From a virus (taxonomy: Duplodnaviria > Heunggongvirae > Uroviricota > Caudoviricetes): a stretch of 35,535 bases of DNA. The translations under genes and the position numbers were made by a program. Each line of letters begins with the position of its first letter. The first letter of the stretch is position 1. The notes under the pieces are model-generated. The model was not told where the DNA came from, did not search any database, and was given only the letters and a program-made list of their open reading frames with translations. The stretch is taken from the IMG/VR virus record IMGVR_UViG_2872152978_000002; one strand, written 5' to 3'. Shown piece by piece: positions 5,686 to 28,748 of the stretch.

Positions 5686-6876
5686 TTAATTGCTGTTAAC
5701 CGAGGTGACCAGATTTGCCAGGTATTTATCGGTGATACGCTGGCGCAGGGTCAGGTTTTCAAGAGGAGGCACCGGGGTATAGTCGTAGTCGATATACAGT
5801 TTTCCGGCCTTGAGGGTTTCCGCATCGTTGGATTCTTCGCTAAACCAGCAGGTCGCATCCACGATATAGCCGTTTGTTTTCAGCTCACGGAATTTGGCAT
5901 TGATGCCGTCAACGATGTCACGAATCAGCGTTGCGGTGATGGGCTTGTCCACCGCCCACATGTGCGCCTCAGCCATCGTGTCGGCCAGTACCTGTGCGGT
6001 GCGGGTGTAGTTTTCAAAGAGGAACAGCGGGTCATCAGAGCAGGTACGGTTACCCCAGAAGCGGAAACCGTCACGGCGAATCAGTGTTGTGACGCCTGAC
6101 TCGTTAAGCAGGTCAGCATCGGTGCCGGACTCCTGCAAATCCCAGAATACAGATGCGCTGATGCCGGTAACACCGTTCACCCCGACGTTGGACAGCGTTT
6201 TATGCCAGCCCTGCTCCTGGTCGATTTTGGCACGCAGACCCAGCGCACGGGCGGTAGCATACGCGGTGGCGGTGGTACTGGTGACCGTATCCCATGCGAG
6301 GAAATCCGGCCAGATGACCATCAGCTCACGCTGGCTGAAATTCTGGCGGTAAGCTTTCACCTCGGAAATGGTTTTACAGCCCCATGCGCTGATATACCCG
6401 AAAGCGCGCAACTTCTGACAGACTGATGCCAGTGCAACAGCCACCTCTTTGGTATCCAGTCCCGGTACGCCGAGAATACGCGGTTTAACACCGGTTACCG
6501 ACTCCGCCGCCAGCAGGGCTTTCAGTCCGGTGTACTGACCGTTTTCGTCGGTGGTGCCGATGATATTGGAAACGGTCTGCGCGAGTTTCGTTTCTTCGTC
6601 GTCGCCGGTGCCGTCTTCCACGCGCACAACAACGGTGACCGGTTTTGACTGGTCAGCGATGGCCTGCAACGATGCCGCCAGCGTGCCTTTTTTACCGGCC
6701 TTTGCAATTGCGCTCTGCACATTGGTAATCAGCACCGGTTTATTGAGGGGGAAGGTTTCCGCATCCGCATCGCTGGCCGTGCAGACCATGCCGACAATGG
6801 CGGTGGATACGGTTGAAATGACGCGGGTGCCGTCGTTAATCTCCAGCACCTGCACGCCGTGATGATAGTCACTCAT
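5686..6876 (-). CDS. FI: Contractile tail sheath protein FI, 396 aa
   Basis: 396-aa ORF, P2 gpFI length and position, first gene of the FI-FII-E-T-U-D block. Confidence 0.9.
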   Translation of the reverse strand: MSDYHHGVQVLEINDGTRVISTVSTAIVGMVCTASDADAETFPLNKPVLITNVQSAIAKAGKKGTLAASLQAIADQSKPVTVVVRVEDGTGDDEETKLAQTVSNIIGTTDENGQYTGLKALLAAESVTGVKPRILGVPGLDTKEVAVALASVCQKLRAFGYISAWGCKTISEVKAYRQNFSQRELMVIWPDFLAWDTVTSTTATAYATARALGLRAKIDQEQGWHKTLSNVGVNGVTGISASVFWDLQESGTDADLLNESGVTTLIRRDGFRFWGNRTCSDDPLFLFENYTRTAQVLADTMAEAHMWAVDKPITATLIRDIVDGINAKFRELKTNGYIVDATCWFSEESNDAETLKAGKLYIDYDYTPVPPLENLTLRQRITDKYLANLVTSVNSN

Positions 6877-6971: not shown

Positions 6972-6999
6972 TACAGAAAAGGCGGGCAATTCGCCCGCC
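6972..6999 (-). terminator. Hairpin with T-run (minus strand) upstream of FI, left edge of the cargo island
   Basis: GGCGGGC-AATTC-GCCCGCC stem-loop at 6981..6999, followed on the minus strand by TTTTCTGT. Probably the backbone terminator that separates the tail-fibre operon region from the FI late promoter. Confidence 0.4.
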
Positions 7000-7063
7000 T
7001 GTCCTAGTTTGTACTCACTCATTTTCCGACTGACAATTTACATAGCCAAAACGCTATCAAATC

Positions 7064-7096
7064 TGACAGTCTGCTTTGAGCGAAAAGCAGACTGTC
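7064..7096. repeat. Perfect 14-bp-stem inverted repeat upstream of the HNH gene
   Basis: TGACAGTCTGCTTT-GAGCG-AAAGCAGACTGTCA; no clear T-run on either side, so it could be an operator or RNA structure rather than a terminator. A degenerate copy lies at 8077..8115. Confidence 0.7.
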
Positions 7097-7212
7097 ACGC
7101 GTTGAAGTTAATTGTATTACTTAGATAAACACTATCATTTTCCTGACGTTAAGTTGTATCTTTGATAGGATTAAAAAACGTATAGATAGCTTATGCTACT
7201 GAGGGAATAAAA

Positions 7213-8022
7213 ATGACGAAAATTAGTGAACGATGGAAGCACAATGGCATTACTGAAGGTTATTGCAATATTTGTGGGAAATATGGCTTGCTCACAAAAG
7301 ATCATGTTCCTCCAAAGTGCGCCATAACCTTAGGCCCTGTTTTGCAGAAAACAGTTAGCGAATTTTTTGGTATTCAGGAACCAGTTAAACCATTAAATGC
7401 TAAAAATGGCTCTTATTTCAGAACCATTTGCAGCCACTGTAACAATAAGGTATTAGGTGGGCTCGATGTTGCAATTGAAAATGTAACAAAGTCCTTTAAA
7501 GAACAGTTAAGTCGATATATGAATGGTATGAATGTATATCCATTCATTAGAATACCTTTTGATAGCATATCTTTCACTAAGGCTATGATTGGGCACGTGC
7601 TATCAGCAACTTCAGTTGAAGATTGTAAAAAAGAACCCGTAGATAGCCCCTTCTATACACCTTTAAAGGATTATGTTTTGGGTAAAAATTCAAGTTTTGA
7701 GGAAACTCATGATATTTACTACTGGTTTTACCCACACAGAATGCACATATCCGCTCAAAGTGTAGCATTTATGAACGAAGGACATGTGGCATTTATTTGT
7801 GCTTTACATTTTTTTCCTATCGGTTTTATTATCACAATGAAAAATGAAGGAACATACCCTGCCCACTCTACAAAATTAGAACTTGAAGATAAATTCCTTA
7901 CATTTAATATGACCTCTATAAATTATGAGTATACGACATTTCCATTTGTAAATCTTAAGGGAAACCAAATGTATGCGATAAGCAACGGTCATACTTGTGT
8001 GAGTTATCCAATAATTAAGTGA
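7213..8022 (+). CDS. HNH-motif nuclease-like protein with an unknown C-terminal domain, 269 aa
   Basis: N-terminus carries C-x2-C (CNIC), DHVPPK, a conserved Asn and C-x2-C-N-x-K (CSHCNNK), the spacing typical of zinc-bound HNH endonucleases. GAGGGA Shine-Dalgarno before the ATG. About 35% GC, unlike the P2 backbone. C-terminal ~190 aa has no motif I recognise. Confidence 0.75.
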   Translation: MTKISERWKHNGITEGYCNICGKYGLLTKDHVPPKCAITLGPVLQKTVSEFFGIQEPVKPLNAKNGSYFRTICSHCNNKVLGGLDVAIENVTKSFKEQLSRYMNGMNVYPFIRIPFDSISFTKAMIGHVLSATSVEDCKKEPVDSPFYTPLKDYVLGKNSSFEETHDIYYWFYPHRMHISAQSVAFMNEGHVAFICALHFFPIGFIITMKNEGTYPAHSTKLELEDKFLTFNMTSINYEYTTFPFVNLKGNQMYAISNGHTCVSYPIIK

Positions 8023-8162
8023 CGGCTAAATCATACAATCTACGCATGTTCACTTTCTACATATACCATCTATAATGTCCGCTGTTGGCACAAAGCAGAC
8101 GCCCACTCTCACGCGAATGCTTTGCCCTTGACTTGCCAACAACCGTATCGCTTGCTCCGCAA

Positions 8163-9440
8163 CTATGGTTTTTTATTAGAATCTTCGCCACTAAATAAAT
8201 TATAATAAATTGATTTTATTAGATATCTGTCAGAATCTATATGGTCAGCACGAGTAGCATGCTCTAATGTTTCAAATGCTAGGGTTTGTGCGGCTTCAGC
8301 AAAAATTCCAGGCCAACCCTTACTCAGCATCGACAGTCCTTTAAGGACCCTTATCTGAATTTCCCTCATACTGGCACCATCGCGCGCAACAGGTGAGAAA
8401 AAGTCTTCAAGTAGATCGTTATTCTGAAGTGGTGCAACATGTACAGAAGGATATTTCACTTCTATTTCATCAGATTTATTCTGCGCGTAAGCGGAAAGTA
8501 TACGTACACCTCTGCCAATGACATCAATGGCGGTTCCAGGATCGTTCACTGCGGGGGAAAGGGCTCGGCAGGCTATTTCGGCCATGACGCTAAGACAAAA
8601 TCGGGGGTCCTGAGCAAATGAACGTACATCCGAGACAATAATCGTCTCAAGTAAATCGGTGCTGATTGATGACTCCTGGCCCTGACTCAGGTACAAAACT
8701 GGCGTGGACGGATGTATGAAACTGCCCGGCTGCGCCACGAGGTATACATGACGGGGATCATTGGTCAGCAGCTTGCTGAGTTTCACCATATCAACATATT
8801 CAACATAGCCAATCTTTTTCGGATAAACTGCAACCGTTCCTTTCGGCTGTTCATTGTTCTCAAGCCATGGATATCCGCCGAGACAGGGATTTCTTGCTCT
8901 CGCAATAAATGTTTCGATGGCCGCCTGTTCTACTTTTGCCGTTGTCTCACCAACCCTCCCCAGAGAGGTCAAATGCTGTATCCAGCGAAGCAATGTGATG
9001 AGGATTAAGGCAATGACAACCAGTGTTACAATGAATAAAATGACTCTCCCCCTTTCTCCATAAGCTCCCATATTGAGGGCAATAATCCCTACCAGACTGA
9101 AGAGAAAAGAACCGATGAAGGTGGCCAGTACATTTTGTGTGGTGACGTCTTCAACAACTAAACGAGTAGCTCTGGGAGTCACATTAGTAGTGGCTGAACC
9201 GTAGGCTGTGACCATGATGCTCAGCGAAAATGTGGTCACTGCCAGCATACTCGATGCCAGTATGTTCAGAATGTTATCGACTGCTTCCGCACCAACCTTC
9301 ACGGAAACCGACTCAGGTATCATTGATTTAAAAAGAATTGATAAAAGGGCCGTTATTATTGCGACAATTGCGAATAACGTTGCCCTGAACCATAGTTTTT
9401 TAAATGTCTGCTTCAGCATCCATTTCCAGCGTGAAATCAT
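8163..9440 (-). CDS. Membrane protein with four N-terminal TM helices and a ~250-aa soluble domain (DUF2254-like, from memory)
   Basis: Four hydrophobic segments in the first ~160 aa. Start placed at the Met preceded by GAGGGA (the track ORF starts 15 nt upstream, inside the terminator T-run). Family assignment is from recollection only. Confidence 0.55.
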   Translation of the reverse strand: MISRWKWMLKQTFKKLWFRATLFAIVAIITALLSILFKSMIPESVSVKVGAEAVDNILNILASSMLAVTTFSLSIMVTAYGSATTNVTPRATRLVVEDVTTQNVLATFIGSFLFSLVGIIALNMGAYGERGRVILFIVTLVVIALILITLLRWIQHLTSLGRVGETTAKVEQAAIETFIARARNPCLGGYPWLENNEQPKGTVAVYPKKIGYVEYVDMVKLSKLLTNDPRHVYLVAQPGSFIHPSTPVLYLSQGQESSISTDLLETIIVSDVRSFAQDPRFCLSVMAEIACRALSPAVNDPGTAIDVIGRGVRILSAYAQNKSDEIEVKYPSVHVAPLQNNDLLEDFFSPVARDGASMREIQIRVLKGLSMLSKGWPGIFAEAAQTLAFETLEHATRADHIDSDRYLIKSIYYNLFSGEDSNKKP

Positions 9441-9461
9441 TCTGCATTCCCTCATATTGCA

Positions 9462-9492
9462 GCCGGGATAAATAAATGCCGCCTCTGTGGCG
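9462..9492 (-). terminator. Intrinsic terminator between the BCCT transporter gene and the downstream membrane protein gene
   Basis: ATGCCGCC-TCTGT-GGCGGCAT hairpin followed on the minus strand by TTTATTTATC, 12 nt after the transporter stop codon. Confidence 0.55.
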
Positions 9493-9503
9493 GCATGTTG
9501 CTG

Positions 9504-11507
9504 TTAACGAACCAGATGCAGGAAGTGCAGGTGTTTTTCGTACTGGTCCAGTATGTCATTAATCAGCTGTTCCTGATTCCAGCCCATTACATCATAATTT
9601 TGGCCGCCCTCTTTGAGATAGACTTCAGCGCGATAATATCGATGTTGTTCACTCTGCTGCTCATCATTATCCAGCGCAGCGAGCGCGAAGGTCGGTGAGT
9701 TATACCCGCGAAGCCTCACTTCATATATATAATTCAGCTCGTTGCCCAAATCGACTTCAAGGCGAATACGATCCTCGGCGGCGTCACTGATGTGGCTTAT
9801 CGTTCCCTGCTTGTTAAGTTCCTCCTGAACCAGCGTCATGGCGGGTTGGATAATGTCGTCCATAAAACGTTTCACAAGAGAGCGCTTCGGCAAATACGCG
9901 ATATTGCGTAACCTTCTCTGCCAGGGAATTGGGTTACGTGCAGCCGTAGGAGCAATAGTCGCCATGCTAAGGCTTTCACGCTTGGTCAAATCCCGACGCA
10001 GGGCTTTTAACAGTCCGTATATGGATATTAATAAGATAACTGAGAAGGGCAATGCACTCGCTATCGTTACGGTTTGCAACGCACTCAGCCCCCCTGCGAT
10101 CAGCAGGGCAATAGCAACAACGCCCATGAGCAATGCCCAGAAAATTCGCTGCCAGACGGGCGTGTTTGCCACCCCACCTGATGCCAGAGTATCCACAACC
10201 ATTGCCCCCGAATCAGCAGACGTTACAAAGAAGACGATGACCATCGCCATTGCAATGAATGACAGCACGGAAGAGAACGGGAAATGCTCCAGGAAATTAA
10301 ACAGGGCAAGCGCAACATCCTGCTGAACGGTATTGGCGAGGTCAGTGGCGCCCTGGTTCATGATGAGATAGATGGCGCTGTTTCCAAACACCGTCATCCA
10401 CATGAGCGTAAAGCCGGCGGGAACAAACAACACGCCAGTCACGAACTCACGAATTGTCCTGCCGCGGGAAACGCGTGCAATGAACATACCTACAAACGGC
10501 GACCATGAAAGCCACCATCCCCAGTATAATAATGTCCAGCCCCCCAGCCAGTTGCTCGACTTGGGTTCATACGCGTAAAGGTTGAACGTTTTACTCACCA
10601 GTTCCGACAGATAACCACCCGTATTTTCCACAAATGACTTCAGCAGAAGCACAGTGGGACCCAGGCACAAGACCAGCGCCAGGAGCAACACCGCCAGGCC
10701 CAGATTAAGCTCAGACAGGATGCGTATTCCCTTGTCCAGGCCGGACACCACCGAAATCGTCGCTAACCCCGTGATGACCACGATCAAAATGACCTGTACC
10801 GTTTCATTGATGGGCACGCCGAAAAGATGGTTCAAACCGGCATTCACCTGCAATACACCGTAACCCAGCGATGTTGCAACGCCAAAGACAGTGCCTATCA
10901 CGGCGAAGATATCAACCGCGTGGCCTATAGGCCCGTAAATGCGATCGCCGATAATGGGATAGAGCGCAGAACGCAGCGTTAAAGGCAGACCGTGACGGTA
11001 ACTGAAAAAGGCCAGAATCAGCGCCACGATGGCATAAATTGCCCATGCGTGCAGACCCCAGTGGAAGAACGTCAGGCGCATGGCTTCCTTCGCTGCCGCA
11101 ACGGTCTCTGGAGTGCCGACAGGTGGCGAAAGATAATGCATCACAGGTTCGGCAACGCCAAAGAACATCAGGCCGATCCCCATCCCTGCCGAAAAAAGCA
11201 TCGCGAACCAGGAGTGGTAGCTGAAATCAGGCTGCGCATGGTCTGGGCCCAGCTTTATATCACCGTAACGTGAGAGTCCAAGGAACGTGACGCTCAGTAA
11301 AATCAGGGCCACAGCAAGTATGTAGAACCAGCTGGCATTCGTGAAGATTTGTTGCTGAAGTAGTTTAAAATTTTTGTCGGCGACATCCGGGAATACGGCG
11401 GCAAAGGCGACAAGAAGGAAAATTAGCAAAGCAGATGTAAAGAATACCGCTTTGTTAACCTGGCTTGTAGACTTCTTTGGGGTTGTATCATTTTCACTCA
11501 TAATCAT
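9504..11507 (-). CDS. BCCT-family transporter, BetT-like (choline/betaine type), 667 aa
   Basis: BCCT signature GWTLLYWGWWLSWSPFVGMFIARVSRGRTIREF; overall collinear with E. coli BetT as I recall it, including the C-terminal ...DILDQYEKHLHFLHL tail. Confidence 0.85.
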   Translation of the reverse strand: MIMSENDTTPKKSTSQVNKAVFFTSALLIFLLVAFAAVFPDVADKNFKLLQQQIFTNASWFYILAVALILLSVTFLGLSRYGDIKLGPDHAQPDFSYHSWFAMLFSAGMGIGLMFFGVAEPVMHYLSPPVGTPETVAAAKEAMRLTFFHWGLHAWAIYAIVALILAFFSYRHGLPLTLRSALYPIIGDRIYGPIGHAVDIFAVIGTVFGVATSLGYGVLQVNAGLNHLFGVPINETVQVILIVVITGLATISVVSGLDKGIRILSELNLGLAVLLLALVLCLGPTVLLLKSFVENTGGYLSELVSKTFNLYAYEPKSSNWLGGWTLLYWGWWLSWSPFVGMFIARVSRGRTIREFVTGVLFVPAGFTLMWMTVFGNSAIYLIMNQGATDLANTVQQDVALALFNFLEHFPFSSVLSFIAMAMVIVFFVTSADSGAMVVDTLASGGVANTPVWQRIFWALLMGVVAIALLIAGGLSALQTVTIASALPFSVILLISIYGLLKALRRDLTKRESLSMATIAPTAARNPIPWQRRLRNIAYLPKRSLVKRFMDDIIQPAMTLVQEELNKQGTISHISDAAEDRIRLEVDLGNELNYIYEVRLRGYNSPTFALAALDNDEQQSEQHRYYRAEVYLKEGGQNYDVMGWNQEQLINDILDQYEKHLHFLHLVR

Positions 11508-11822
11508 TTATTCCATTAATTAAATCCGCACTGGATAGAAGGTACTACCTCTCACAGAGTAGCAAAGTTCAACTGGCTATGCGGGATTAATCGGAATGCA
11601 TGGTGGAATGAGTGCCGATACAAATCATCCTATATTCTAAGGAGTTTTAAGTTACTCAGCCTGCCAATTACTGGGGCATTTAATTTGTATGATCTGTATC
11701 AAAGCTGGGATATAAGTTAAGTGAAGTATATTAGGCACGAATTACCAGCGTCTGCTCTTGGCACAGAGCGGACTGTCAGATTAGACTTTACTCTGTGCTA
11801 TAGGTATGTCAGCTCATACAAC

Positions 11823-12350
11823 TTATTGCGGCATTTCCGGCCATTCAGGATTTGCAGGATCCACACGACTGACCAGAACGCTGTAGCGTTCCCATGCTTC
11901 CAGTCGGCTGCGCTCCTCATCTGTTGCCATATTCAGCCTGACAGCGCGCTCCAGCGGCAAAATCACGGATTCAGCTTCGGAAAGTAAAGTTGCCTTTTGT
12001 GATTCTGCCAGTTGCTGCTGTTCGTCTGCCGTATAAATCCGCTTAATCACGGCACCATCCTTAAACATCCATTTACCTGAGTCATCAGCACGTCGGTTGG
12101 CGGTAATATCAGGAACCTCGACAACGCTAAAACCTTCAGGGTTAAGCGTTGAAGCATCTCTGGTGATGCCGACAATTATATTATTCTCGTCGTAAACAAT
12201 CTTTATCGTGTCTTCCTGAAAATTACTTACTTCCTCATACCAGTTTTTTCCGTCTTCAGACCATAACCAGATAACATCAAAATTTTTTGTCAGTTGATAT
12301 TGGGCAACAGTTTTGGGATTACCCGCAGTAATATTTTTTAAATGCTGCAT
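11823..12350 (-). CDS. G: Tail fibre assembly protein G, 175 aa
   Basis: 175-aa ORF directly downstream of H; P2 gpG length and position. Confidence 0.88.
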
Positions 12351-16238: not shown

Positions 16239-16863
16239 AGAGGACTCCCGGTTGTGCCGCCGCTGTCGCCGGGGTGTTTATGGGTATGCAGTACCTTCCC
16301 GTTTGATGAAAGTTCACCGCCGGTGTGTTCAATGTTGCCGCGCATCGTCCCGCCCTTCTGCACTTCCAGCGTGCCGGTAATCAGCTTGTTGGTGCAGACC
16401 ACCTCCGGTGTGTCCAGGGTGACGCGGGTTGATGCTTTCACCATGACCACCGGCACCGTGGCAGTAACAGAATCAGAAGCCGTCACGCTGGCCGTTTTAA
16501 TTCCGCTTACCGTGAGTGCACTGGTTTCAGGTTCATACTCAATCACCGCCCCGTCAGGGAAACGGATATGCAGGGCATCCGCCGACGCCGACGGCGCGGG
16601 TTATCGCCGGAATAAATCCCCGGCAGAACGAACGCCGTGTCGAGTTCACCGCCCACGGCCAGAATCAGCACCTGTTCCCCCACGGAAGGTGCCCACCATG
16701 TGCGCGAACGACCGGCGCGATGGGTCAGCCACTGAAGCCAGTCGGTGCACATGCCGCCGGTCTGCACACGGCAGCGACCGGCATTAAGGTCGGTTTCGAC
16801 GATAATGCCAGTGCGAATCATATTGCGTATAAAGCGAAGAATTTCATTGTATTGTGCATTCAT
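16235..16863 (-). pseudogene. V: Baseplate spike gene V, split by a frameshift (or sequencing error)
   Basis: N-terminal part (MNAQYNEILRFIRNMIRTGIIVETDLNAGRCRVQTGG...SGDN) and C-terminal part (...ADALHIRFPDGAVIEYEPETSALTVSG...GSPL) lie in different frames. They join if 2 nt are removed or 1 added near 16596..16600 in a GCGCCG-rich run; the joined length is about that of P2 gpV (211 aa). Confidence 0.7.
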
Positions 16864-16949
16864 TCGATAATAATGATTCTGTACAATCTCGAAGTAAATC
16901 ACACCACGATTTCTGGTGCACAGAACAACAAGGGACAACAAAATCCATT

Positions 16950-18023
16950 ATGAGTACTTACTTTTTCTCGTCAGAAACAATGAAAGAATTGTTCAAAGAT
17001 TATCTGGTCTTTTTGAACACGCTGACTCCCGGCACAAACTTTGAATCAAGCAGAAACAAAATAATTGCTCAAGCAATAAACTTCATTTCCGAAAACCCTG
17101 AAGATTGGGACAAAAAATCCCAGTACAACATTGCTATGATTGGCGACACCTTTAAAAGTTTCTTAAGAGAAAAGGGAGAAGATAACAACAGCATCAACCT
17201 TATATTCACTTGCTTTTTTAGATTTATCATTGAACCAAGCATTCTCTCTCCGGAAATAGAGTCTCACTTTTCACCACTAAGAACCATCAAGGATTTTGCT
17301 CTGTATAACTATAATGAATTCGATGAGCGGAGCAGAGCACAGATAGACTTTTCTCTTAGAGAACTGCCATTAGCAATGGTTAAAGAAGTTTTAAGCTCCA
17401 GCAATGTTGACACATATAAAAAATACATTGATAGTTTAAACGAAGGGCGTCAATTTTTCGAAAAGTGCGACTCCTTCTTAAAGGAGCAACATGCCAAAAT
17501 AGAGTCAATCAAAGAGTCATTAAAAGGGTATGAGGTCGCATTTAATTTTGTTGGATTGTTTGAAGGCTTTAATTCACTTGGCAAAAAGAAAGAAAGTGAA
17601 ATCATGCTATCAAGAATAATTCTTATCATCTTGGCTATAATCATTCCCTCCCCGCTGATATACTATGGAATGCATAAATTACCAGCTCTCGAAACGACAA
17701 ATGCTGCCACATATTTTATGTCAGCACTACCTTTTGCATCAGTTACATTGATTTTCATGTATTACTTTAGAGTTGTACTGCTAAATCATATATCGTTACG
17801 AACTCAGATTATGCAAATAGAACTCAGAAAGAGCCTTTGTCAGTTCATTCAGAGTTATAGCGACTATTCCTCAGAGATAAGGAAAAACAATCCGGAAGCG
17901 CTTTCAAAATTCGAAGACGTAGTATTTTCAAACATCATGCTATCCGATGATAAGATACCATCTACATTTGATGGCATTGAGCAAATAGCATCGTTAATCA
18001 ATTCATTAAAAAATGGAAAGTAA
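16950..18023 (+). CDS. Hypothetical 2-TM membrane protein (~357 aa) at the P2 orf30 moron position
   Basis: AT-rich ORF divergent from V. Mostly helical N-terminal ~240 aa, then two hydrophobic helices (IILIILAIIIPSPLIYYG and YFMSALPFASVTLIFMYYFRVVLL) and a ~90-aa tail. Followed by an intrinsic terminator. Start codon uncertain (weak Shine-Dalgarno). Confidence 0.6.
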   Translation: MSTYFFSSETMKELFKDYLVFLNTLTPGTNFESSRNKIIAQAINFISENPEDWDKKSQYNIAMIGDTFKSFLREKGEDNNSINLIFTCFFRFIIEPSILSPEIESHFSPLRTIKDFALYNYNEFDERSRAQIDFSLRELPLAMVKEVLSSSNVDTYKKYIDSLNEGRQFFEKCDSFLKEQHAKIESIKESLKGYEVAFNFVGLFEGFNSLGKKKESEIMLSRIILIILAIIIPSPLIYYGMHKLPALETTNAATYFMSALPFASVTLIFMYYFRVVLLNHISLRTQIMQIELRKSLCQFIQSYSDYSSEIRKNNPEALSKFEDVVFSNIMLSDDKIPSTFDGIEQIASLINSLKNGK

Positions 18024-27931: not shown

Positions 27932-28645
27932 TTACACCAAACCCGGGGAATAAGGGCCTCGTGCTAATTCAGGATTAGTCCACATTAAGCAAACTGGGTT
28001 ATCTGAAGTTATAAATGACCCTTGCCCATCAGATATGGTCATAAGTGACCAGTTGCGTTGATGCAACAACTTGGTGATAACAGGTACACATTTCATTTCC
28101 ATATCTATCATGAACTCTCTGATTACATTGATTTCGAAATTATCCCCATCCACAAAATTTTTAATTTTTTCGTAAGCGAGATCATATGGCAAAGACTCAC
28201 CCATTTCTTTCTCATAAGCTAATTTGCAATCGTCCCAACGCTCAGCCGAACTAACTGAGGATTTCATGATAAACTTTGCTATTTGTTTCAATGGAGATGA
28301 TAAATGTTCTCGCTGAGCAGGCGTACGTATTGCCAATAAGGAAATAAACTCCAGAATAACATCTTTGGTTTCGCCTGAAAACTCGCCCCCCTCCTCAAGT
28401 TTTCTTAAATGAGTAGCGACACTGCCTTCAAACTCTGCAAGAGAACTCTCGAGATAGTTTGGGTCAACTCCATCCAATTCTAATCGGTTGAAATCTCTAA
28501 CCCCCCCGACATTGCGAGTATTACTCTCAAAGGTTTTGCGCTCCTTTAAATCTATTACAGTTAATTTTGATTTTTTCCCCCCATTACTTGTAAACCCTTT
28601 CAAATAACATTGGGATAAAAAATGATGATGCCTTGCAACACTCAT
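27932..28645 (-). CDS. DUF4238-like protein at the P2 old/tin moron position, probably truncated by a frameshift
   Basis: Starts MSVARHHHFLSQCYLKGF and contains SDNPV, which I recall as DUF4238 hallmarks. GGAG Shine-Dalgarno 6 nt before the chosen ATG. AT-rich. The reading frame of the downstream 66-aa ORF (27717..27917) is open from 27967, so one indel in the CCCCGGG run would give a ~305-aa product. Confidence 0.65.
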   Translation of the reverse strand: MSVARHHHFLSQCYLKGFTSNGGKKSKLTVIDLKERKTFESNTRNVGGVRDFNRLELDGVDPNYLESSLAEFEGSVATHLRKLEEGGEFSGETKDVILEFISLLAIRTPAQREHLSSPLKQIAKFIMKSSVSSAERWDDCKLAYEKEMGESLPYDLAYEKIKNFVDGDNFEINVIREFMIDMEMKCVPVITKLLHQRNWSLMTISDGQGSFITSDNPVCLMWTNPELARGPYSPGLV

Positions 28646-28748
28646 ACTCAGCTCCGTTATGGCTATAATCGCATAAATAATAAGCACTTATATTGCAATC
28701 ATCTAGTTAAATACACAATATTTATGACTCCGAAATTTCATTAAATCA

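Follow-up and report, generated by a model that had tools for sequence, protein, structure and literature searches.

The gene at the fun(Z) position of an Escherichia coli P2-like prophage encodes a protein whose assignment to the His-Me finger (HNH) superfamily is well supported and very probably correct, given a set of invariant residues and the likeness of its modelled fold. From the position, orientation and mobility of the gene, its neighbourhoods and the absence of partners, we infer a further step to which, on sequence evidence, we give about an even chance: that the lysogenic-conversion cassette encodes a stand-alone HNH nuclease whose role is single-gene defence against phages or other mobile DNA. 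The window—the whole stretch of 35,535 nucleotides that was analysed—is an E. coli P2-like prophage, identical to E. coli S10 over 16 kb; the features discussed are collected in Table 1.

Table 1. Coordinates of the HNH gene, its conserved residues, the cassette that carries it and the surrounding hotspot in the window
Feature	Position	Strand	Remark
P2 tail sheath gene FI	5686..6876	-	Left border of hotspot
Intrinsic-terminator-like hairpin	6980..7000	-	Between cargo and FI promoter region
Mobile cassette carrying HNH gene, 1,033 bp	7068..8100		Same end points elsewhere
Left 24-bp boundary palindrome GTCTGCTTTGAGCGAAAAGCAGAC	7069..7092		Inside perfect hairpin 7064-7097
Shine-Dalgarno GAGGG	7201..7205	+	8 nt 5′ of HNH gene ATG
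HNH-type CDS	7213..8022	+	ATG start, 269 aa + stop; identical to WP_000161640.1
Split HNH (His-Me finger) core	7255..7458	+	Residues 15-82
Predicted zinc ligands C18/C21	7264-7275	+	HNH core
D30-H31, end of beta-strand	7300-7305	+	HNH core; then ~35-residue insertion, second strand
C73/C76-N77, helix start	7429-7443	+	HNH core
Residues 83-269, alpha/beta region without recognised fold	7459..8019	+	Packed against HNH core in the model
Invariant D85	7465-7467	+	Non-HNH region
Invariant G127-H128	7591-7596	+	Non-HNH region
Invariant W171	7723-7725	+	Non-HNH region
Invariant P202	7816-7818	+	Non-HNH region
Right 24-bp boundary palindrome GTCCGCTGTTGGCACAAAGCAGAC	8077..8100
DUF2254 membrane protein	8163..9455	-	Hotspot cargo, separable from HNH gene
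BCCT/BetT-type choline transporter, full-length	9504..11507	-	Co-resident cargo
Third palindrome copy	11750..11773		Closes DUF2254+BetT block; P2-backbone feature just downstream of G
P2 tail fibre assembly gene G	11823..12350	-	Right border of hotspot

The open reading frame and its motif (C18-N-I-C21, D30-H31-V-P-P-K35 and C73-S-H-C76-N77-N-K) were recovered exactly as the initial annotation had them, as were the Shine-Dalgarno sequence and the GC content, which had been put at about 35% and measures 34.9% (GC3 29.7%), against 56% in the adjoining tail sheath gene. The promoter that had likewise been ascribed to the gene was not confirmed, a consensus scan of the plus strand having found no sigma-70 promoter upstream. 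A leader of 120 nt separates the left palindrome from the ATG, and the 5′ flank down to position 7068 (145 bp) always travels with the gene, shortened to about 86 bp (from 7127) in a 94%-identical variant; no Rfam family matches anywhere between 6800 and 8300. Comparison with five orthologues yielded dN/dS values of 0.02-0.18 over the whole gene length, so the gene is real and under purifying selection. Records of WP_000161640.1 name the protein "hypothetical protein", "chaperonin" or "metal-binding protein". The last two names are treated as spurious—no chaperonin similarity was found, the GroEL-fragment "chaperonin" ORF of plasmid L012 included—and, judged from sequence, their use for the family appears to be a propagated mis-annotation.

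The HNH core and the remainder of the protein

Across 62 homologues, which reach down to about 22% identity, C18, C21, H31, C73, C76, N77, D85, G127, H128, W171 and P202 are invariant, and D30 (97%), P33, P34, G66, G82 and P244 are nearly so. Since the core residues persist over such distances, the HNH motif is not a chance pattern. Conservation in the family falls into blocks at residues 16-35, 61-90, 121-135, 166-180 and 196-210, with the last ~60 residues the most variable. Two invariant CxxC pairs, C18/C21 and C73/C76, flank the putative catalytic hairpin, which is the Cys4 arrangement of the EndoVII/HNH_5 type. In the model, strand 24-31 ends in D30-H31, the invariant histidine being preceded by the aspartate as in a His-Me finger, and strand 68-73 runs into helix 74-81, which begins with C73xxC76-N77 and thus has the invariant asparagine at its start, directly after C76; in this prediction the elements of the core follow one another in the expected beta-beta-alpha-metal order.

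Database profiles recognise this core in fragments. The window protein scores 11.6 bits against Pfam HNH_5 (PF14279; E 0.29, residues 18-35 on profile positions 1-21 only), below the curated gathering threshold of 27.5 bits. HNH_5 is matched by 25 of the 35 close members of the family and by 34 of the 62 distant ones (best E 1.9e-6), at 13.5-18.5 bits in all eight that match among ten sampled relatives, and five family members match Endonuclease_7. The first half of the HNH_5 profile aligns to CxxC…DHVPP in some members and the second half to …FRTICxxCNN in others, the two falling on the motif halves in the correct order, and one Endonuclease_7 match covers both motif halves. The HNH_5 match is split because some 35 residues are inserted between the strands of the hairpin. 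Together with the invariant core residues, these matches within the family support the original reading of the pattern as a nuclease-type fold. Elsewhere, the window protein has no match among NCBIfam models nor in PADLOC-DB v2.0.0 (including the PD-T4/T7/lambda, Rst and PDC candidates), even with E up to 10; its sole PHROGs match is phrog_21495, of function not known, and sequence searches of the PDB (phmmer and two profile searches) returned chance matches only, to dethiobiotin synthetase and Rv3472.

An AlphaFold2 model of the full-length protein, built from an alignment of 35 sequences, is confident (pLDDT 91.7, pTM 0.91) and forms one compact unit, which suggests that residues ~83-269 are packed on the HNH core rather than strung behind it as a separate bead. 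The initial annotation had described an independent appendage of about 190 residues behind a complete motif; the model gives a single compact unit instead, and the motif itself is interrupted by the ~35-residue insertion. It had also called the C-terminal two-thirds unrecognisable, and structural comparison agrees, finding no relative of this part in the PDB despite the confident model. Among the structural likenesses of the model are NbaCas9, another Cas9, the HNH of retron Ec83 and IscB; each score is weak, and the enrichment is clear. D85 and H128 are located in the helices next after that of the HNH core. Searches of the remaining part of the protein detected neither an SRA/PUA-type domain nor any other known reader fold, so that no fusion of HNH to an SRA, PUA/EVE, McrA N-terminal or similar reader, as marks type IV enzymes, was recognised.

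The fun(Z) hotspot and the palindrome-bounded cassette

In reference P2, the interval from G to FI holds fun(Z) on the strand opposite FI, and a note in the P2 record credits this lysogenic-conversion gene with blocking T5. The HNH gene takes this fun(Z) position. According to Vassallo et al. (PMC9519451), the fun(Z) locus is a second defence-enriched hotspot of P2, with three of the systems that they validated, and to that extent the defence hotspot proposed from the sequence alone has found confirmation. The gene has the attributes of a moron or lysogenic-conversion gene: it is non-core, has 35% versus 56% GC, runs opposite the late genes and sits in a slot whose cargo varies among phages. 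It is carried by about 110 of 5,426 complete E. coli genomes, flank-only matches occurring in about 2,200. The strong terminator-like hairpin on the FI side, with a 9-bp stem of which seven pairs are GC and a T-run, probably insulates the late F operon from read-through.

Two further genes, encoding the DUF2254 protein and BetT, share the slot in the window. They are not partners of the HNH gene, since the latter is the sole cargo at the fun(Z) site in the 94%-identical variant, found in another P2-like prophage (L002); on plasmid L012, an insertion parts the HNH gene from both. In their own right, they constitute cargo without recognised links to defence inside a tail-gene hotspot, which is unusual for P2-like phages.

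Other variable positions of the same prophage also hold cargo. In the interval from replication gene A to the portal side, the tin/old hotspot, lies a known defence gene for a DUF4238 protein (27932-28687, minus strand) that matches the PADLOC profile "DUF4238-Pers" with E 8.5e-168; the match covers positions 1-236 of the 309-position profile, and the 251-aa protein may, from its sequence, be a short variant or a truncated form. Low GC also marks a third cargo gene (16854-18023, plus strand, 389 aa), which is found in a region of ~36-40% GC opposite the baseplate/tail-completion genes. Its product has no Pfam, PADLOC or NCBIfam match, the L002 prophage has a protein with an adenylate/guanylate-cyclase domain at the equivalent position, and this site, too, may be a variable hotspot, its gene an orphan candidate.

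The HNH gene travels on a cassette of 1,033 bp that is bounded by imperfect palindromes of the pattern GTCYGCTNT-N6-ARAGCRGAC, for which three sites were found against 0.07 expected; in reference P2, a related palindrome stands behind gene G. The cassette recurs, with unchanged end points and at 99.4-99.8% identity, in lambdoid prophages and on a dozen IMG/VR contigs. Conjugative IncF multidrug-resistance plasmids from Shigella sonnei, Klebsiella pneumoniae, E. coli and Enterobacter have in common with the window a double unit of 4.7 kb (7069-11773) at 99.9% identity; there it adjoins IS26, mph(A)/mrx/mphR, erm(B) and relB (plasmid copy at L011 8857-13561; also on L012), and the sequences point to a recent exchange of this unit between the prophage hotspot and the resistance plasmids. 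At least 1,000 contigs have the exact HNH protein on record, because this E. coli allele is carried by P2-like and lambdoid prophages as well as by IncF resistance plasmids.

In E. coli lambdoid prophages, the HNH gene resides in the nin region between hokD and the replication genes, on the opposite strand. Other strains have a 195-aa hypothetical protein or gene-less filler between the same palindromes; an exact empty lambdoid site was not found, the slot always being filled by other cargo. At the lambdoid site of E. coli MS20654 and about 20 other genomes, that cargo is QueH (epoxyqueuosine reductase), and no palindrome was detected by the pattern at the QueH-bearing site of MS20654. Palindromes also occur at loci L145 (7858/8866), L146, L147, L011 and L149 (~1836-1860). 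As a feature of the whole family they are ruled out, 76 loci of distant homologues having no matched flanking palindromes. Since HNH-less cassettes share the palindromes and distant homologues lack them, they belong to the enterobacterial hotspot and cassette system and not to the family. Their sequence suggests short-homology crossover points at which cargo is exchanged.

Distribution, neighbourhoods and competing functions

A word-indexed search returned 93 full-length relatives, and an exhaustive profile search 1,789 cluster representatives at E ≤ 0.001 and 356 at E ≤ 1e-30, clusters being defined at 50% identity. Nearly all representatives are 260-300 aa long and match end to end. They are spread over Gamma- and Betaproteobacteria, Cyanobacteria, Nitrospirota, Planctomycetota, Bacillota, Bacteroidota and others. 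Informative domain fusions are ruled out: the longer members carry nothing but low-complexity N-terminal extensions, which look like mis-called starts in GC-rich genomes. Partners were sought by calling ORFs at 80 loci, taken from different species, and clustering every gene up to five positions away; there is no conserved partner gene, and no neighbour family exceeds six of the 80 loci. With neither a shared neighbour family nor informative fusions, the protein would work alone or with host factors.

Family members are present on 51 IMG/VR viral contigs and 60 plasmids, in settings of many kinds. In Serratia, a P4-like satellite has a homologue of 39% identity between its int and psu genes, an interval that we take to be the P4 defence hotspot described by Rousset et al. 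2022. A Vibrio homologue is found at the end of a filamentous prophage, adjoining DUF2726, and a Pseudomonas homologue in a recombinase-flanked island without phage genes. In Enterobacter, the gene stands beside the lambdoid-type terminase of a prophage, on the opposite strand, and several IMG/VR relatives are arranged likewise. When 289 neighbours within two genes of homologues were compared with PADLOC, strong matches included Dsr1, a CBASS cyclase plus effector, AbiD, AbiTii, DrmC and PD-T4-2_B, along with TIR-Argonaute, a dGTPase, a DRT reverse transcriptase, a type IIG restriction-modification enzyme and several PDC candidates; the commonest Pfam families among the first 148 neighbours were integrases, resolvases, IS66 transposases and Mrr. 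A rough count, which has no matched control and is indicative only, places a recognisable defence gene within two genes at about one in four to five loci. According to the DefensePredictor paper, 2% of all E. coli genes have a known defence gene no more than ten genes away (PMC13092281).

The defence function would work as follows. The gene is carried on the 1-kb AT-rich cassette as a moron in the lysogenic-conversion hotspot and, given this place on the strand opposite the late genes, is probably transcribed from the prophage. Its product, a predicted stand-alone HNH nuclease of the Cys4-zinc, EndoVII/HNH_5-like type, would recognise its target or have its activity gated through the C-terminal region, and the HNH site would cut incoming or replicating foreign DNA. 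Several considerations count against the defence reading. The protein matches no PADLOC or NCBIfam model, and the consensus scan detected no promoter. A constitutive free nuclease that has no immunity partner needs a mechanism to tell self from non-self; candidate ways to spare the DNA of its own cell are a type IV-like dependence on modification, structure-specific cutting as by EndoVII, or activation triggered by infection. Furthermore, the same hotspots harbor cargo that is not recognised as defensive, namely BetT and DUF2254 here and QueH at the lambdoid site.

Foremost among the alternatives, though unlikely, is a selfish endonuclease of the homing type, which would cut a specific site—perhaps the 24-bp palindrome or a cruciform formed by it—and copy its own cassette with no benefit to the host. 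A classic type of homing endonuclease is encoded by free-standing HNH genes (group 1, PMC5714182), some members of the family match Endonuclease_7, the family of the T4 junction resolvase, and a discrete, nearly identical, palindrome-ended cassette in backbones as unrelated as those of P2-like prophages, lambdoid prophages and IncF plasmids would fit such an element. However, the same palindromes bound cassettes without an HNH gene (DUF2254 plus BetT, the 195-aa hypothetical protein, the gene-less filler), one palindrome copy belongs to the P2 backbone, and distant homologues have no matched palindromes at their flanks. The gene is not found in an intron or intein and interrupts no conserved gene, and no flanking gene is common to the loci of 80 species, unlike insertion at a conserved target; a recurrent conserved target with homologous flanks was likewise not found. 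The homing endonuclease that the initial annotation had offered as an alternative is thus disfavoured by the very diverse insertion contexts, which comprise P2, P4, lambdoid and filamentous elements, plasmids and islands.

It is improbable as well that the protein is a housekeeping or accessory nuclease of phages and plasmids, with a role in recombination, repair or DNA processing through structure-specific cutting like that of T4 endonuclease VII or RusA, to the advantage of its carrier element. Its kinship to the EndoVII/HNH_5 branch would fit such a role, and so would its proximity to RusA and a DUF968 gene within the nin region of lambdoid prophages, DUF968 being classed as a His-Me finger family (PMC5714182). 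Yet, as the genome counts given above indicate, the gene is missing from most related prophages, its slot is taken by unrelated cargo in sister phages, it always runs counter to the phage operons around it and has a foreign GC content, and it is also found in chromosomal islands without any phage genes.

A toxin of the addiction or toxin-antitoxin kind, which would stabilise the element that carries it and for which the cassette would also encode an antitoxin in the form of a small RNA or peptide that escaped recognition, is less probable again. Carriage by many conjugative resistance plasmids and prophages is in keeping with this, as is a stand-alone predicted nuclease behind a 120-nt leader that runs from the left palindrome to the ATG, with relB as a neighbour on plasmids and hokD in lambdoid prophages. 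But relB and hokD both lie outside the cassette, no small ORF or partner is conserved across the 80 loci, and the region that includes the leader is devoid of Rfam matches. The least probable reading, to be given very little credence, is a zinc-finger DNA-binding or regulatory protein on an HNH scaffold that does not cleave nucleic acid: the sub-threshold scores of every HNH-model database match and the unusual insertion in the beta-hairpin speak for it, whereas the residues needed for catalysis alone—H31 as predicted general base, D30 and N77 as predicted metal ligands—are invariant or nearly so in very divergent members, which is unexpected for a structural zinc finger.

Relation to known systems and significance

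T4 endonuclease VII and Hpy99I (Endonuclease_7), together with HNH_5, form the Cys4-zinc branch of the His-Me finger superfamily. The present family differs from them in that an insertion splits the hairpin, in that its scores stay below the Pfam gathering thresholds, and in that it possesses about 185 extra residues with invariant residues of their own and no recognised fold. Other systems close to it are the HNH nicking endonuclease of phage GVE2 (PDB 5h0o) and the HNH domains of ZRANB3 and Cas9. To single-protein nuclease defences and HNH-containing type IV restriction enzymes such as McrA and TagI there is no sequence relationship, and no known reader fold was detected here. Fun(Z), Old and Tin are the lysogenic-conversion exclusion genes of P2. 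The HNH gene resembles fun(Z) in occupying the same slot in the same orientation, opposite in strand to its neighbours between G and FI, as a single AT-rich, non-essential cargo gene. In contrast, the two proteins differ in length (269 versus 528 aa) and in predicted chemistry, and homology to Fun(Z) is ruled out by the lack of sequence similarity (BLASTP E 0.32).

WP_000161640, WP_000192157 and phrog_21495 are not mentioned in the full-text literature searched and are absent from the DefensePredictor supplements; a term search of the P2/P4 hotspot papers checked, and of a domain-centric screen, brought up no comparable system. As a kind, HNH effectors on mobile elements are already known. What is new is the combination of a split HNH core with a domain that has no structural relatives, the wide distribution, and the carriage on resistance plasmids. 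That the family constitutes a new and very widespread one-protein immune nuclease, which joins a split HNH to a sensor or recognition domain of novel fold and whose cassettes exchange at the palindromes, is a tentative proposal whose chances we place somewhat below even; more speculatively, the nuclease itself might act on the boundary palindromes and thereby drive cassette exchange.

If the defence function is true, the family would represent a compact single-gene system of 269 aa that is spread over many phyla and has been missed by PADLOC v2, Pfam thresholds and NCBIfam. It would bear on the prediction of phage-host range and on phage therapy where the target is a plasmid-bearing strain of Shigella, Klebsiella or E. 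coli; if phages are restricted, it could limit the infection of strains with epidemic IncF multidrug-resistance plasmids. Solving the structure would be likely to reveal a new domain, and would show how a free HNH nuclease spares its own genome. The palindrome-bounded cassettes, for their part, offer a testable handle on how cargo is swapped between the hotspots of unrelated mobile elements, a process that a 2026 NAR study of P2/P4 hotspots explicitly leaves open (PMC13586616).
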